Notes under the pieces: model-generated
The model's database searches: none
Told to the model about the DNA's origin: nothing
Seen by the model: only the letters and a program-made list of their open reading frames with translations
In this document: one piece after another, positions 27,851 through 39,430 of the stretch
How the letters are laid out: each line of letters starts with the position of its first letter
Numbering within the stretch: the stretch's first letter is position 1
Position numbers and translations under genes: made by a program
Assembly: GCA_963717465.1 (NCBI GenBank)
Contig: OY970340.1
Location: forward strand, 256,001-320,000
DNA length: 64,000 nt
Reading direction: 5' to 3'
Source: Candidatus Bathyarchaeota archaeon
Lineage (GTDB): Archaea > Thermoproteota > Bathyarchaeia > Bathyarchaeales > Bathycorpusculaceae

Positions 27851-30271
27851 ATGATTAAACAAATTATCAGCTGAAAAACTAAGAAATGAATGCGACGTTA
27901 ATTTTTTGCATTGTGAATCAACCAAGGATCTCAAACCGCTAAGCGAAATCATTGGTCAAGAAAGAGCAGTGCGCTCTTTAAAGTTTGGTTTAGGAATAAA
28001 AAATCACGGTTTTAACATTTACGTTGCTGGTTACCCTGGCACAGGCAGGAAAACTGCAATTAAGAGTTTTGTTGAACAACTTGCTCAAAAACAGCCAGTA
28101 CCGCCAGACTGGTGTTACGTTAACAATTTTGCTAATCAATATGAGCCAAAAGCTATAAAATTGCCAGCTGGAAAAGGGAAAGAGTTTCAAGAAGATATTA
28201 AAAACTTAATTGAAAACATTCGAAATGCATTGCCTAAAGCTTTTGAAAGCGAAGATTACGCAGCTAGAAGAGAAGCAACTCTTAGAGGGTTAGAGAGCCA
28301 AAGGAAAGAATTAATTGATCAATTAAACGCGAAGGCACAACAAGAGGGTTTTGTTATTCAGGCAACGCAAATTGGAGTGCTTCTCATTCCAGTGCTGGAC
28401 GGTAAACCGTTAAGTGAAGAGGAAATAATGGCGTTGCCGCAGAAGATTAAGGATAAACTTCAAGAAAAACACGATAAACTTGAAGTAGAACTCAGGAATA
28501 CAATGAGACAAATTTTAGATATGGAAAGAAAGATTGTTGATGCAGTTAAGAAGCTTAACAGGGAAATTGCGCTTTTTTCTATTGGGAATCAGATTGAAAA
28601 CATTAGAGAGAAGTATAAGGAAATTCCTGAAATTATCGCTTATCTTAAGGATTTAGAAAACGATATTTTAGATAACTTGCAAAAATTTATCAGAATCGGG
28701 GAACCACAGCAACAGCAATCTCACGCTTTCTATGCCTTGGGCAAGGGAAGACCCCTTCAAGAAATATGCTGTTAACGTGATCATTGATAACTCGAACCTT
28801 AAGGGTGCACCTGTAATAATGGAGTTTAACCCAACTTACCCAAACCTTTTTGGCAGGACAGAAAAGGAAGCCCAGTTTGGAGCCCTTACCACTGATTTCA
28901 CTATGATTCGCGCAGGAGCTTTACACAAAGCTAACGGTGGATATTTGATTATTCCGGTTGAACAGTTGCTCCGTAATCCATACTCTTATGACGCTTTAAA
29001 ACGGGATATTAGAGATAGAAATATTTCTTTAGAAGAACCAGAAGAAAGATACGGCTTCCTCAGCGTGAAAACCCTTAAACCTCAACCAATCCCGTTGAAC
29101 GCGAAAATAATTTTGATTGGGAATCCGCAGATTTATCAGGCATTATTCAGTTTGGACATGGATTTCAGAGAACTCTTTAAGGTTAAAGCTGAATTTGACA
29201 CAACAATGGAGAGAAATGACGAGAACGTAAAGTTGTATGGCGCTTTTGTTTGCACGCTTTGCGAAAAAGAGAACCTTAAACATCTTGACGGTTCAGGCTT
29301 TAGCTAAACTCATCGAATTCAGCTCTAGAATAGCTGAAGACCAATACAAGTTGTCAACGCAATTTTCATTAGTTGCTGATGTTATGCGTGAATCAAACTT
29401 TTATGCTGAACAAGAAAACTCACAATTCATAACTGGTAGTCACATTAAAAAAGCGATAGAAGAGAGACTTTACCGTTCAAAGTTGATTCAAGAAAAAATT
29501 CAAGAAATGATTAAAAGAGGATTCTTCCTAATCGACACTGTTTCTGAAAAAGTCGGGCAAGTTAACGGATTATCAGTTATGGGACTTGGCGATTTCGCTT
29601 TTGGAAACCCATCACGTGTCACCGTAAGCATAGGATTAGGACGAGAAGGAGTTATTGACATTGAACGCGAAGCTAAAATGGGCGGCCCAATTCACACTAA
29701 AGGAGTCTTGATTCTCAGCGGTTACCTAAATGACAAATATGCTAAAGATAAACCGTTAAGCCTTTCTGCACGACTTGTGTTTGAACAAAATTATGAAGGA
29801 ATTGAAGGCGATAGCGCTTCAAGCACAGAATTATACTCGATACTGTCAGCGCTTTCTGGGTTACCCATAAAACAAAACATTGCAGTAACAGGCTCAGTTA
29901 ACCAGAAAGGAGAAGTTCAAGCGATAGGCGGCGTAAACGAGAAAATCGAAGGTTTCTTTGAAGTCTGCAAAGTGAAAGGATTCAATGGCAATGAAGGCGT
30001 AATGATACCGGACAGCAACGTCCAAAATCTGATGCTGAAAGAAGAAATAGTTGACGCGGTGAAAGCAGGAAAATTCAACATTTACTCGGTTAAGACTATT
30101 GATGAGGGTATTGAAGTTCTTACTGGAGTAAAAGCAGGAGACCGACGTGCCGACGGAACCTTTGAGGCTGGAACAGTGAATTACAGAGTAAATAAAGAGC
30201 TTGAGAACATGGCTAATAAACTCAGAGAATACCCATTAATTCCAGCGCAAGAGAAAAAAGATGAAAGCTAA
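27851..30271 (+). CDS. Lon-like protease, LonC type, frameshifted
   Basis: IGQERA, DWCYVNNF, GALHKANGGYL, GQVNGL, GDSAS (Ser), EKIEGFF (Lys); P-loop GTGRKT. Confidence 0.9.
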
Positions 30272-30326: not shown

Positions 30327-30539
30327 TTATTCTAAGCAAACAAAGCTTATTTCGTCAAAATCTTTGAAGTGTATTCGGTGCAAACATTTGGCGAAAAATA
30401 AGGGCAAACCGAGACGACGAAAAATGCTTTTCTTACTTTTCCCACTTCTTGCTATAATCTTCTTGATCGGATGGACATTGTACATGCTCGGTGAAGAACA
30501 ATGCAAAACAATCGAATAAGAAGAGAACGATTGCTCCAC
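30327..30539 (-). CDS. Small basic hypothetical protein
   Basis: 70-aa ORF with Cys/His residues and no recognised motif. Confidence 0.35.
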   Translation of the reverse strand: MEQSFSSYSIVLHCSSPSMYNVHPIKKIIARSGKSKKSIFRRLGLPLFFAKCLHRIHFKDFDEISFVCLE

Positions 30540-30688
30540 CTAAAAAAGATAACGTTCACTTTATGCCCAATATATCCAGCGATGAAAAGGAAGTAATAGC
30601 AGAATAAAAAATTTTTCTTTTTTCGTTATTTGCTTTGTTGTTGCCTTTGCACAACCACAACTCCATTTATAGCCGAAAAAGATTTTGT

Positions 30689-30860
30689 TAATGTTGCGAG
30701 AGAAATAGCCATCCAAGAGATACACCCAACAGCTTGGCGGGTCAGCAGTTCCCAAGATGAGGATTCAGGGATCGCTTTCGGGGCTGTTTTTTCGATCCTC
30801 ATCTATGGGAACAGTTGCGATCCGCTAAGCCTTACTTTTGGAAAAGAATTGTTAACATTA
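30689..30860 (+). ncRNA. Putative rod-shaped structured RNA of unknown family
   Basis: Nested pairings 30689-96/30853-60, 30712-19/30835-42, 30732-43/30819-30, 30748-54/30806-12 and 30755-64/30795-804; apical UUCG; non-Watson-Crick pairs are G-U on the + strand; T-run at 30884-89. Confidence 0.7.
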
Positions 30861-30900
30861 TTAGGGATTAAATAGTAATTCTGTTTTTTGTGAGTTAGCG

Positions 30901-31251
30901 TTGGGTTACAAAAATCGCATGCATCCTAAAGTCAGCAATGCCGAAATTGAATTATTCAAAGCGTTAAGTGCTGCAGACTTAACTGGAGGCATGGTTACAC
31001 AAAAAACAATTATCCTTAAGTCAACTATTCCAGACTTCTGTTGGCTTAACAAGAAAAAAGCCGTTTACTTAGATGGACTGCAAGTTCATTCAAAAGAAAA
31101 AACGGAAAAAAGAGATAAAGAAATTGACGGCTTACTGAAAGCGAATGGTTGGGAAGTACTCAGAATCCCATACGATCCGCCTTTGACTGCCGATTCTTTG
31201 AAAGAGATTGTTGAGTCAATAAAACGATTTGTCGGATTCGACGAGGAATGA
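30901..31251 (+). CDS. Small Vsr/DUF559-like endonuclease (PD-(D/E)xK fold)
   Basis: S.AE, IPDF, AVYLDG..VH, RD..ID.LL...GWEVLRI. Confidence 0.85.
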   Translation: MGYKNRMHPKVSNAEIELFKALSAADLTGGMVTQKTIILKSTIPDFCWLNKKKAVYLDGLQVHSKEKTEKRDKEIDGLLKANGWEVLRIPYDPPLTADSLKEIVESIKRFVGFDEE

Positions 31252-31313
31252 GAATAGAATCCAAGATATCACTAAAAGCAAGTTGCTTAAGATTTGAATA
31301 ATATTTGAATTAT

Positions 31314-39324: not shown

Positions 39325-39430
39325 TGGTGCGGTTACCGGGATTTGAACCCGGGTCGTCAGCTTGGGAAGCTTGCATGGTAACGTTAATGAAGCGTTACTT
39401 TGATGTCCTACCAAACTAGACTACAACCGC
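39325..39430 (-). tRNA. tRNA-Gly(CCC) with a 30-nt intron at position 29/30 (intron 39371-39400), CCA encoded
   Basis: GCGGTTG/TAACCGC acceptor stem; CCGGG-TTCAAAT-CCCGG T arm; removing the intron restores TCAGC-TTCCCAA-GCTGA; relaxed BHB motif. Confidence 0.95.

Follow-up and report, generated by a model that had tools for sequence, protein, structure and literature searches.

A predicted rod-shaped small RNA of Bathyarchaeia and its DUF559/Vsr-like neighbour

The locus

We analysed a 64,000-nt stretch of DNA (the window) from a Candidatus Bathyarchaeota archaeon. Between a Lon gene on the left and a PHP gene on the right, an intergenic element that folds into a rod lies on the + strand and is followed by a co-oriented gene for a DUF559/Vsr-like protein (Table 1). 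The TTTATA motif upstream of the element, picked out in the first-pass annotation, is present and conserved in the alignment of relatives. The promoter-proximal box before it has the family consensus CA[G/A][T/C]CACA[A/T] and also precedes divergent members and paralogs. Judging from the archaeal spacing between TATA box and start site, the transcript is predicted to begin near G30696.

Table 1. Features of the RNA element and the neighbouring gene, 5' to 3'
Feature	Position	Strand	Remarks
Promoter-proximal box CACAACCACAA	30650..30660	+	5 nt upstream of TATA box; 29-locus alignment
TATA box TTTATA	30666..30671	+	TTTATA in 27 of 29 aligned loci, AATATA or TTAATA in the rest
5' tail GCGAGAGAAAUAGCCAUCCAAGAGAUACACCCAACA	30696..30731	+	unpaired in centroid fold; core AAUAGCCAUCCAAGAG-UACACCC invariant or nearly so
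P1, 5' strand GCUUGGCGGGUC (DNA GCTTGGCGGGTC)	30732..30743	+	pairs with 30819-30830
P2, 5' strand: GUUCCCA, AGAUGAGGAU (DNA AGATGAGGAT) and continuation	30748..30766	+	
Apical element, P3 hairpin region	30767..30786	+	UUCG-like loop in the window version
Internal U-run UUUUUU	30787..30792	+	single-stranded, just 5' of P2 3' strand
P2, 3' strand: AUCCUCAUCU (DNA ATCCTCATCT), UGGGAAC	30795..30812	+	fold, covariation
P1, 3' strand GAUCCGCUAAGC (DNA GATCCGCTAAGC)	30819..30830	+	covariation
3' box (C)UUACUUUU, family CUACUUUU; predicted terminator U-tract	30832..30839	+	models R1 and R2 end here
TATA-like box TTATTAGG of DUF559 gene (relatives TTATTAAGG)	30858..30865	+	about 43 nt before TTG
GTGAG, likely ribosome-binding site of DUF559 gene	30890..30894	+	
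DUF559/Vsr-like protein, 116 aa, TTG start	30901..31251	+	Pfam PF04480

Fold and covariation of the RNA element

The first-pass annotation described a fold-back selected on the + strand, and folding of both strands over 30675-30895 agrees with this. The + strand reaches -71.3 kcal/mol, compared with -51.8 ± 4.3 kcal/mol for shuffled sequences (z = -4.58; 0 of 200 as good), whereas the - strand reaches -50.7 kcal/mol (z = -2.29; 3 of 200 shuffles as good). With a GC content of 0.48, the element stands out as a local GC island from the adjoining intergenic DNA (0.25-0.37).

We followed the rod through 89 distinct sequences (alignment A1). In the covariation analysis of the inner helices, 91.3% of paired-column cells form pairs, while slid controls give only 19-53%; both sides have changed in 25 of the 33 rod pairs, and the covariation score of 0.320 (0.219 for shuffles) was reached by 0 of 500 shuffles. 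Pairing per helix ranges from 82 to 98%. P1 comprises 12 pairs with 98.3% of cells paired and both-side changes in 7 pairs; helices 2-4, which make up P2, are 82-95% paired, with both-side changes in 17 of 18 pairs. The inner helices proposed at the outset, namely P1 (30732-43/30819-30), GTTCCCA/TGGGAAC (30748-54/30806-12) and AGATGAGGAT/ATCCTCATCT (30755-64/30795-804), are therefore present and conserved with covariation. Among 2937 paired-column cells we counted 375 G-U and 67 A-C combinations. This excess fits a + strand RNA and extends to the relatives what had been read from the G-U deviations in the window.

The largest conserved internal loop of the consensus structure measures about 5 x 8 nt. 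An apical hairpin of at least 4 bp is found in 81 of the 89 sequences. Its loop varies (AGAAGGA in 24 of 89, CAAU in 7 of 89), and the apical UUCG, originally listed as a feature of the element, is specific to the window. The internal U-run has at least four residues in 79 of 89 sequences and lies in a motif, CUAYUUUU, that is seen again at the 3' end. There, among the 89 pattern-matched sequences (94 distinct sequences in all), the box reads TTTT 85 times and TTCT four times. The 5' tail is about 35 nt long, and 26 nt of it are almost invariant (invariant columns A15-C37 of alignment A1). The conservation of this single-stranded stretch exceeds that of the surrounding proteins.

The outer parts of the originally proposed structure fared less well. 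The outermost helix, TAATGTTG/TAACATTA, is peculiar to the window, and its 5' arm TAATGTTG precedes the transcription start that the TATA box predicts. For the 5' and 3' flanks of 88 loci, the native duplex energy of -3.75 is at the level of permuted partners (-3.62 ± 0.17). Helix TCCAAGAG/CTTTTGGA would join two stretches so nearly invariant that they offer no changes for covariation. The T-run at 30884-30889, which had been noted in the first-pass annotation, is not conserved and sits behind the TATA-like box of the nuclease gene. As the outer helix is found in the window only and the conserved end falls at 30832-30839, the conserved unit is about 145 nt long (about 30696-30839) and not 170-190 nt.

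Element lengths range from 141 to 163 nt across the 89 sequences, with all three classes modulo 3 represented. We detected no coding potential, and the open frame of the window is interrupted by a stop codon in 84 of 89 sequences. The 81-aa ORF at 30630-30875 is not conserved and was rejected as a coding gene.

Copies, paralogs and distribution of the RNA family

At Rfam 15 gathering thresholds, only two tRNAs pass in the whole window, neither at this locus. The - strand gave the only matches in 30500-31000 at E up to 10, four weak ones of 11.6-17.4 bits with cut-offs of 41-95. The element, in which no SRP, RNase P, C/D or H/ACA signature had been recognised by eye, is thus without an Rfam match at gathering and E-value thresholds alike. 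The genes for SRP RNA and RNase P RNA sit elsewhere in the same genome.

That genome (3.05 Mb) contains one blastn match to the element and one strong match to model R1. Tandem Repeats Finder gave 0 rows for 30600-30950 at a minimum score of 30. With a single copy and no tandem repeats, the element is not a MITE, an alternative that the first-pass annotation had left standing. A viral origin was rejected, since there were 0 matches in viral contigs.

Model R2 identifies paralogs in the same genome at C1:779546-779694 (53.4 bits) and C1:332167-332301 (44.1 bits). They keep the promoter box, the rod, the U-run near the apex and the CUACUUUU terminus, but their tails differ. A shortened variant, L084, retains the tail and P1, with the upper rod replaced. 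The wider family of rod RNAs was found in only three genera of one Bathyarchaeia family. Taken as a prediction from sequence, the assignment of the element to a new, lineage-specific archaeal small-RNA family is well supported. A second putative hairpin sRNA family in the same genome was considered as a user of the same promoter; this was rejected, as both its stem (GGUGGCUAUAGG...) and its box differ.

The DUF559/Vsr-like neighbour

The 116-aa co-oriented ORF noted in the first-pass annotation is a member of PF04480 (DUF559), scoring 33.5 bits (cut-off 20.6; E = 4e-8). The Vsr model TIGR00632 gives it 15.5 bits (cut-off 97.85). The neighbour, a putative endonuclease, resembles the Vsr/DUF559-fold proteins (PF04480; Vsr, 1cw0; NGO0050, 3hrl; catalytic domain of I-Bth0305I, 3r3p) in its Pfam match and predicted fold, but it is not an ortholog of Vsr and is only 116 aa long. 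The model has a pLDDT of 67.3, and its closest structures are 3r3p_B (TM 0.67) and 1cw0_A (TM 0.68). Since the model is of moderate quality and Foldseek returned no match for it at E 0.001, statements about the fold are tentative.

The protein family is limited to a few genera of Bathyarchaeia. Its alignment contains 36 invariant columns in 31 sequences, all of them common to RNA-bearing and RNA-less genera, and the conserved acidic and histidine residues include Asp45, Asp58 and His63. A TATA-like box lies about 50 nt before the start of the gene in RNA-less genera and likewise in RNA-bearing loci.

Linkage of the RNA and the DUF559 gene

The RNA is followed by a co-oriented DUF559 gene at every one of the 83 distinct genome loci that extend at least 1000 nt downstream, and in 65 of 68 loci on metagenome contigs. 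Of the three exceptions, two are stretches of GC-rich coding DNA that match over a 20-mer by chance; the third has an insertion, after which the flank ends. Other neighbours are less constant: Lon is kept in 65 of 83 loci, the PHP gene in 1 of 80, and the genes next beyond DUF559 sort into many clusters, of which the biggest accounts for 21 loci. The adjacency of RNA and DUF559 is tighter than ordinary gene order. DUF559 also stands behind a diverged ortholog of the RNA in genus g154, where the flanks are unrelated. This recurrence, together with the strict adjacency, makes some functional tie possible. In relatives, the element is conserved, covaries and is linked to the nuclease gene, the points on which the first-pass annotation had made its reading depend. 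Among 41 genomes from 40 genera, four contain both the RNA family and DUF559, one contains DUF559 alone and 36 contain neither.

The protein is also found without the RNA. DUF559 orthologs from such loci are 61-74% identical and retain all invariant residues. Model R1, run with filters off, found no RNA at 19 DUF559 loci (six from g26, four from g23, three from g28, one from g66, four from g1 and one from f7), and both positive controls scored. Whole-genome searches with R1 in five genomes of g23, g28 and g66 gave no match at E ≤0.01. In g1, the genus of the window, four genomes contain DUF559 with no upstream RNA. Conversely, the RNA relatives of g26 adjoin other genes, following an NTPase or a polyprenyl synthase gene, and L084 has no DUF559 within 979 nt of its tail-bearing RNA. 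Neither the paralogs nor the g26 relatives have a co-oriented conserved gene behind them. The spacer between RNA and DUF559 varies in sequence and length; the ORF starts 194-638 nt after the tail motif, and 4 of 83 loci contain insertions of 250-420 nt. The DUF559 gene is thus a steady neighbour of the RNA, but probably not its obligate partner. An obligate RNA-nuclease pair finds no support in the DUF559 genes without the RNA in g23, g28, g66 and the four g1 genomes, in the g26 relatives or in the TATA-like box of the gene itself.

Comparison with known RNA classes

The element is most readily compared with archaeal trans-acting sRNAs, which reportedly include sRNA154, sRNA162 and sRNA41 of Methanosarcina mazei and the Lsm-bound sRNAs of Haloferax. 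It resembles them in being intergenic and non-coding and in having an archaeal promoter to itself, a stable hairpin, U-rich single strands and sibling copies, but it differs in its longer rod (about 33 pairs) and in a conserved 26-nt 5' tail in place of a loop. In Rfam searches, the element showed no sequence or model match to known archaeal sRNAs, and no target was found for it.

6S RNA (RF00013 and relatives) is likewise a rod of 150-190 nt with internal loops, but the element has no open-promoter-like central bubble, no Rfam match and a long 5' tail, and archaea have no sigma factor. Type III toxin-antitoxin systems (ToxI/ToxN) are similar in that an RNA lies directly upstream of a small co-oriented nuclease gene, with a U-tract in between. 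In those systems the antitoxin RNA consists of tandem direct repeats and the toxin is not known to occur without its RNA; here, the protein is found without the RNA and with its own promoter box, and it has the predicted fold of a Vsr-like DNA endonuclease and not of an endoribonuclease.

In archaeal H/ACA RNAs, an ACA (ANA) box immediately follows the lower stem, some 14-15 nt away from the pocket. The element differs here: P1 is followed by CUACUUUU with no ACA box, and the P1 3' strand plus loop spans about 19 nt. H/ACA RNAs also have a K-turn or K-loop in the upper stem and a pocket complementary to rRNA; by inspection, alignment A1 contains no conserved tandem G-A/A-G pairs. C/D box sRNAs are defined by a C box (RUGAUGA) and a D box (CUGA). 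They were rejected, as GAUGAGGAU of the window is not conserved in the 89-sequence alignment.

Interpretation of the locus

Although abundant in soils, peat and sediments, the Bathyarchaeia have hardly been cultured, and to our knowledge next to nothing is known of their RNA biology. A literature search found no paper on non-coding RNAs of Bathyarchaeia, and among the abstracts listed on DUF559 in archaea, none concerns an RNA partner. The locus provides a clean candidate RNA gene with predicted promoter, structure and ends, and with a constant scaffold that carries variable tails. If the adjacency to DUF559 is functional, it would represent an unusual and very small RNA-nuclease system; if not, the element would still found a new family of archaeal small RNAs that could enter Rfam.

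We favour, at a little short of even chances, the reading that 30696-30839 (+) is an independently transcribed sRNA, about 145 nt long, that represents a single ortholog group within a lineage-specific rod family, acts in trans, is bound by protein and has the tail as its working part. Transcription would proceed from its own promoter, starting near 30696 and ending at the U-tract. A look-up of sequencing runs for 30560-31300 listed none of RNA type and four of DNA type, of which the best had 0.12 of words in common. The rod with its two CUAYUUUU motifs would serve as a protein-binding scaffold, an Sm-like protein being a candidate, and the 5' tail would pair with, or be read by, a conserved partner. 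The position next to DUF559 would then reflect conserved gene order and perhaps shared regulation, not mechanistic dependence.

Alternatively, the RNA and the DUF559/Vsr-like protein might form a functional two-gene module, in which the RNA regulates the nuclease, inhibits it in the manner of an antitoxin, guides it or is cut by it, or the nuclease might be a free-standing homing-type endonuclease kept beside an RNA gene. The adjacency in 83 of 83 genome and 65 of 68 metagenome loci, with flanking genes less well kept, points in this direction, as do the recurrence in g154 with unrelated flanks, the homing endonuclease I-Bth0305I (3r3p) among the best fold matches and the presence of DUF559 in all four RNA-bearing genomes among the 41. 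The co-occurrence may nevertheless reflect shared ancestry, because related genomes are not independent. The 19 loci and five whole genomes with DUF559 and without the RNA, the g26 relatives at NTPase or polyprenyl synthase genes, L084 without DUF559, the separate TATA-like box and the insertions tolerated in 4 of 83 loci all speak against a module; tandem repeats of the type III antitoxin kind are absent, and 116 aa is too small for a known RNA-guide-binding domain. We therefore regard a module as unlikely. Its boldest form is a minimal cassette in which the tail would be the guide, decoy or inhibitor of a tiny DNA endonuclease, the pair would have stayed together or travelled jointly in two genera with unrelated flanks, and paralogs with other tails would retarget or titrate the same protein; this we consider improbable.

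The constant order of promoter, structured RNA, U4 tract and co-oriented gene would also suit a riboswitch- or attenuator-like cis leader of the DUF559 mRNA in which the U-tract would terminate conditionally, and U4 is short for an archaeal terminator, which makes read-through plausible. However, a conserved TATA-like box, presumably the promoter of the gene in RNA-less loci as well, lies between RNA and ORF, the spacer is variable (194-638 nt), and the paralogs and g26 relatives lack a co-oriented conserved gene behind them, so that a leader has in our judgement only a slim chance. The first-pass annotation also envisaged a promoter-mimic, 6S-like RNA, which would tie up RNA polymerase or a transcription factor by resembling an open promoter. 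Such an RNA would account for the rod shape and the length of 145-160 nt. It is highly improbable given that the large central bubble is missing, no Rfam 6S match was found, conservation peaks in the 5' single strand and not in mid-rod, and each genome has several paralogs with different tails. Finally, the paired arms could in principle be a DNA-level inverted repeat (a MITE, a recombination site or another palindrome). With a single blastn copy in the genome, 0 matches in viral contigs, G-U far above A-C as is sensible for one transcribed strand only, promoter and U-tract conserved in one orientation and covarying pairs, we give this reading hardly any credence.

The 5' tail and candidate partners

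We searched for partners of the tail. With 16S, 23S, SRP and RNase P RNA it forms duplexes that do not surpass those of shuffled tails (30 for each RNA), and a role of the tail as rRNA guide was rejected. Short blastn searches of the tail against its own genome gave chance-level 10-14-mers only; exact and near-exact complements are at chance level there and in 41 genomes of the genus. By inspection, no consistent partner emerged for tail-loop pseudoknots. The pattern CCTCTTGGATGGCTAT, with up to two mismatches, has about 2 extra matches per genome in the 41 genomes of the genus, compared with about 0.6 for the reversed control. One recurrent match, CGTCTTGGATGGCTTT, lies inside a coding gene (...SRSKAIQDAV...) and was rejected as a target because the mRNA of that gene carries the tail's own sense. 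A resemblance between the tail and the start of DUF559 (GCAUCCUAGAG versus CCAUCCAAGAG) was dropped, as we estimate it to be at chance level. A base-pairing seed would require far fewer nucleotides than the 26 that are nearly invariant, which counts against the trans-acting reading.

For the rod, binding of an Sm-like protein is a guess suggested by the U-runs. Archaeal Lsm proteins are described as binding sRNAs (PMC10779274). A candidate Sm/Lsm site should be single-stranded and U-rich, and the element offers such stretches both internally (at least four U in 79 of 89 sequences) and at the 3' end (U4 in 85 of 89). The genome that carries the locus contains two LSM genes.

Conservation and fold of the predicted rod RNA

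Sequence comparison shows that the element between the LonB-type protease gene and the gene of the 116-aa DUF559 protein is a conserved, structured, non-coding unit preceded by a putative promoter. The + strand of 30675–30895 folds with a minimum free energy of −71.3 kcal/mol, compared with −51.8 ± 4.3 kcal/mol for dinucleotide shuffles (z −4.58; 0 of 200 as good), whereas the reverse strand reaches −50.7 kcal/mol (z −2.29). In the written-out structure of this rod RNA (89 distinct sequences), standard pairs occupy 91.3% of 2923 cells, and 25 of 33 pairs show changes on both sides. Each of five covariation and pairing measures was reached by none of 500 column shuffles. When the partners were slid by one to three columns, pairing fell to 19–53%, a control over which the tested structure has an advantage, since it was built from the same sequences. 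G-U cells in paired columns (375) far exceed A-C cells (67), and this settles the RNA strand as +, as the first-pass annotation had argued; the inner helices described there are also all present at the locus. The element is a GC island (0.48 versus 0.25–0.37 in the surrounding intergenic DNA). A coding role was rejected: in 84 of 89 relatives the frame that is open in the window is interrupted by a stop codon, and the elements range from 141 to 163 nt in length.

Three features at first assigned to the element do not belong to the family. The outermost helix (30689–96/30853–60) is not conserved, with native flank duplexes averaging −3.75 kcal/mol and permuted ones −3.62 ± 0.17 kcal/mol (88 loci), and its 5′ arm precedes the predicted RNA start. 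The apical UUCG is peculiar to the window, and the T-run at 30884–89 is not conserved and sits past the TATA-like box of the DUF559 gene. The conserved unit is therefore confined to ~30696–30839. Helix TCCAAGAG/CTTTTGGA links two invariant stretches and thus lies beyond the reach of covariation. At two loci (L020 and L055), the 3′ box CTTTTAGTTACC is tandemly repeated two or three times right after the RNA, the repeats being separated by short spacers. Of 94 distinct loci, 54 have (A/G)GTTAC behind the U-tract; the window's copy does not.

Features of the rod RNA, in the order read from its alignments (89 distinct sequences for the 5′ stretch), and of its surroundings; C1 is the contig of the window's own genome
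Feature	Position	Strand	Remarks
LonB-type protease gene	27906–30271		three overlapping ORFs in three frames (27906–28775, 28732–29307, 29237–30271)
51-aa ORF	30364–30519	+	between Lon and rod RNA; basic N-terminus, one hydrophobic stretch; tblastn against relatives' loci, no match
Promoter box CA(G/A)(T/C)CACAA, then TTTATA	5′ of rod RNA	+	conserved in alignments
5′ stretch (tail) GCGAG(A)AAAUAGCCAUCCAAGAG(G/A)UACACCCA	~25 nt after TTTATA	+	unpaired; invariant or nearly so
Helix P1	after 5′ stretch, before small internal loop	+	12 bp
Helix P2	after small internal loop	+	long; opens with palindromic GUUAAC
Apical hairpin P3		+	at least 4 bp in 81 of 89; loops differ
Single-stranded U-run	between P3 and returning strands	+	at least 4 U in 79 of 89
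3′ box CUACUUUU	after returning strands	+	TTTT in 85, TTCT in 4 of 89 matched
DUF559 ORF	30901–31251	+	116 aa
tRNA match	39328–39430	−	103 nt
Rod RNA paralog (L193)	C1:779546–779694	−	53.4 bits
Rod RNA paralog	C1:332167–332301		44.1 bits
Multi-copy branch (L176–L180)	C1:332159–332344, 335306–335480, 1650771–1650863, 2637762–2637832	−	79–83% identity between copies
Hairpin with tail core	C1:~2699572–2699800	+	

Distribution and paralogs

The Rfam comparison proposed in the first-pass annotation returned no known family: Rfam 15 gives no match at the locus at gathering thresholds and, at E values up to 10, just four weak matches, all on the − strand. The suggestion of a 6S-like RNA is not supported. 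The SRP RNA and RNase P RNA of the same genome are located elsewhere. By blastn the element is single-copy in the 3.05-Mb single-contig genome; among relatives, 28 of the 36 genomes examined from its genus carry it, and none of 24 genomes sampled across 11 other families of the order does. An exact 20-mer of its 5′ part is found in 91 stretches of a species-representative genome collection, and nearly all of the 80 records listed are Bathyarchaeota/Bathyarchaeia, including Bathy-6 and Bathycorpusculum names; the few differently labelled records are probably mis-binned contigs. In metagenomes this 20-mer was matched in 110 stretches, and viral contigs gave no match.

Run without filters over 22 kb, the search model of the rod RNA (R1) ranks two more rod RNAs of the same genome at the top (19.5 bits, E 5e-4; 14.2 bits, E 0.012), both aligning across the whole scaffold. 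A model broadened with divergent members (R2) finds three members in this genome, the rod RNA of the window (113.8 bits) and the two paralogs tabulated. The promoter box and the CUACUUUU end are common to the whole family; the paralogs differ in their 5′ tails, and their long apical loops are C/U-rich and precede a U-run. The paralog at L193 is divergent from a ParB_N-like gene, and its counterpart in another genome (L142) has the same neighbour; the other paralog has three more blastn copies and a fold z of −6.7. With R2, the family is detected in 4 of the 15 genomes searched from the same taxonomic family, and none of 135 genomes representing 30 further families of the class has it; when each genus is represented by a single genome, matches are confined to the window's genus (g1) and to genera g26 and g154. 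A real, previously uncatalogued family of predicted small RNAs is well supported by these comparisons.

The multi-copy branch, a second branch of the family, has the same promoter box, C/U-rich apex, U-run and CUACUUUU end; its two full copies are surrounded by histidine-kinase genes. At C1:~2699572 a promoter-type box of the same kind is followed ~200 nt later by another hairpin with AAGCCAUCCAAGAG, the core sequence of the window RNA's tail, at its apex.

Linkage to the DUF559 gene

The pairing of RNA and DUF559 is a conserved neighbourhood and not an obligate system. A co-oriented DUF559 gene lies downstream in 83 of the 83 genome loci with at least 1000 nt of downstream sequence (of 94 distinct RNA loci), starting 194–638 nt, mostly 214–245 nt, past the tail motif; to this extent the linkage expected in the first-pass annotation holds in relatives. 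Other neighbours are less constant: Lon precedes the RNA in 65 of 83 loci, the PHP gene of the window lies on the downstream side in 1 of 80, and the genes past DUF559 form many clusters, the largest with 21 loci. On metagenome contigs, DUF559 follows the RNA in 65 of 68; of the three exceptions, L249 and L260 reflect chance occurrences of the 20-mer inside GC-rich coding DNA, and L226 is a true RNA copy that carries an inserted element and has a flank too short to show DUF559. In g154, a diverged ortholog (tail AGCCAUCAGGAGAUACACC; 54 bits with R2) is followed ~100 nt downstream by DUF559, with unrelated genes on either side. Such unusually strict adjacency keeps alive a functional tie between the two, which we consider unlikely but not far-fetched. 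Among 41 genomes from 40 genera of the family, 4 carry the RNA family and 5 carry DUF559, and all four RNA-positive genomes are DUF559-positive; however, related genomes are not independent, and this co-occurrence may therefore reflect one shared origin.

Against an obligate pair stand DUF559 genes with no detectable RNA beside them, in other genera and in some g1 genomes. With filters off, R1 finds the RNA in 0 of 19 other DUF559 loci (six from g26, four from g23, three from g28, one from g66, four from g1 and one from f7) but detects both positive-control loci, and whole-genome R1 searches of five genomes of g23, g28 and g66 give a sole match of 32 nt (E 0.079). These RNA-less loci retain a TTATTAAGG box ~50 nt 5′ of the ORF, preceded by other genes; because the box persists there, it is likely DUF559's own promoter. 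Conversely, the RNA relatives of g26 (27–47 bits, one or two per genome, some in tandem) come after an NTPase or polyprenyl synthase gene, not DUF559. Locus L084 (uncultured archaeon isolate LFW-28) carries a miniature rod RNA that retains the tail and P1; in place of the upper rod it has a short hairpin whose loop is C/U-rich, and the 979 nt downstream contain no DUF559 gene. The DUF559 proteins themselves are identical at invariant residues in genera with and without the RNA.

A conserved element, CACTTTCACT...CCCTC(C/T)CCTG, followed by a TATA-like box, is inserted between RNA and DUF559 at L007, L013, L014, L033, L109 and L226. It also lies upstream of DUF559 at L161, L164 and L168, and some RNA-less g1 loci have it by itself ahead of DUF559.

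Proposed function

We infer that the rod RNA acts in trans as a regulatory RNA bound by protein. Its rod, which carries two CUAYUUUU motifs, would serve as the scaffold, for which Sm-like proteins are the obvious candidate binders; the genome has two LSM genes, and archaeal Lsm proteins are reported to bind sRNAs (PMC10779274). Specificity would reside in the invariant tail. This division fits the paralogs, where the scaffold is kept and the tail changed, and L084, where the tail is kept and the rod shrunk. Against this reading, no target for the tail was found in the genome itself, in 41 genomes of the genus, or in 16S, 23S, SRP and RNase P RNA.

The DUF559 protein and other neighbours

The 116-aa protein belongs to DUF559 (PF04480, 33.5 bits; cut-off 20.6). 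Orthology to Vsr was rejected (TIGR00632, 15.5 bits; cut-off 97.85). Its predicted structure is of moderate confidence (pLDDT 67.3) and comes closest to 3r3p_B, the I-Bth0305I catalytic domain (E 6.9e-3, TM 0.67), with Vsr 1cw0_A (E 7.4e-3, TM 0.68) and 3hrl also near; no structure match reaches E 0.001. At E ≤ 0.001, 872 proteins match, the best 120 of them at 67% identity or more, and 36 columns are invariant among 31 sequences. Orthologs occur in g1 (14 of 14), g23 (4 of 4), g26 (6 of 6), g28 (3 of 3) and g66 (1 of 1), and are almost absent elsewhere among 301 genomes of the class.

Unlike the split LonB-type gene of the window, the C-terminal part of Lon in relatives aligns in one piece; the split could represent two frameshifts, arising from assembly error or gene decay. 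The completeness estimate of the genome is 88%, below that of most relatives. The Rfam tRNA match exceeds plain tRNA length and is probably an intron-containing tRNA gene.
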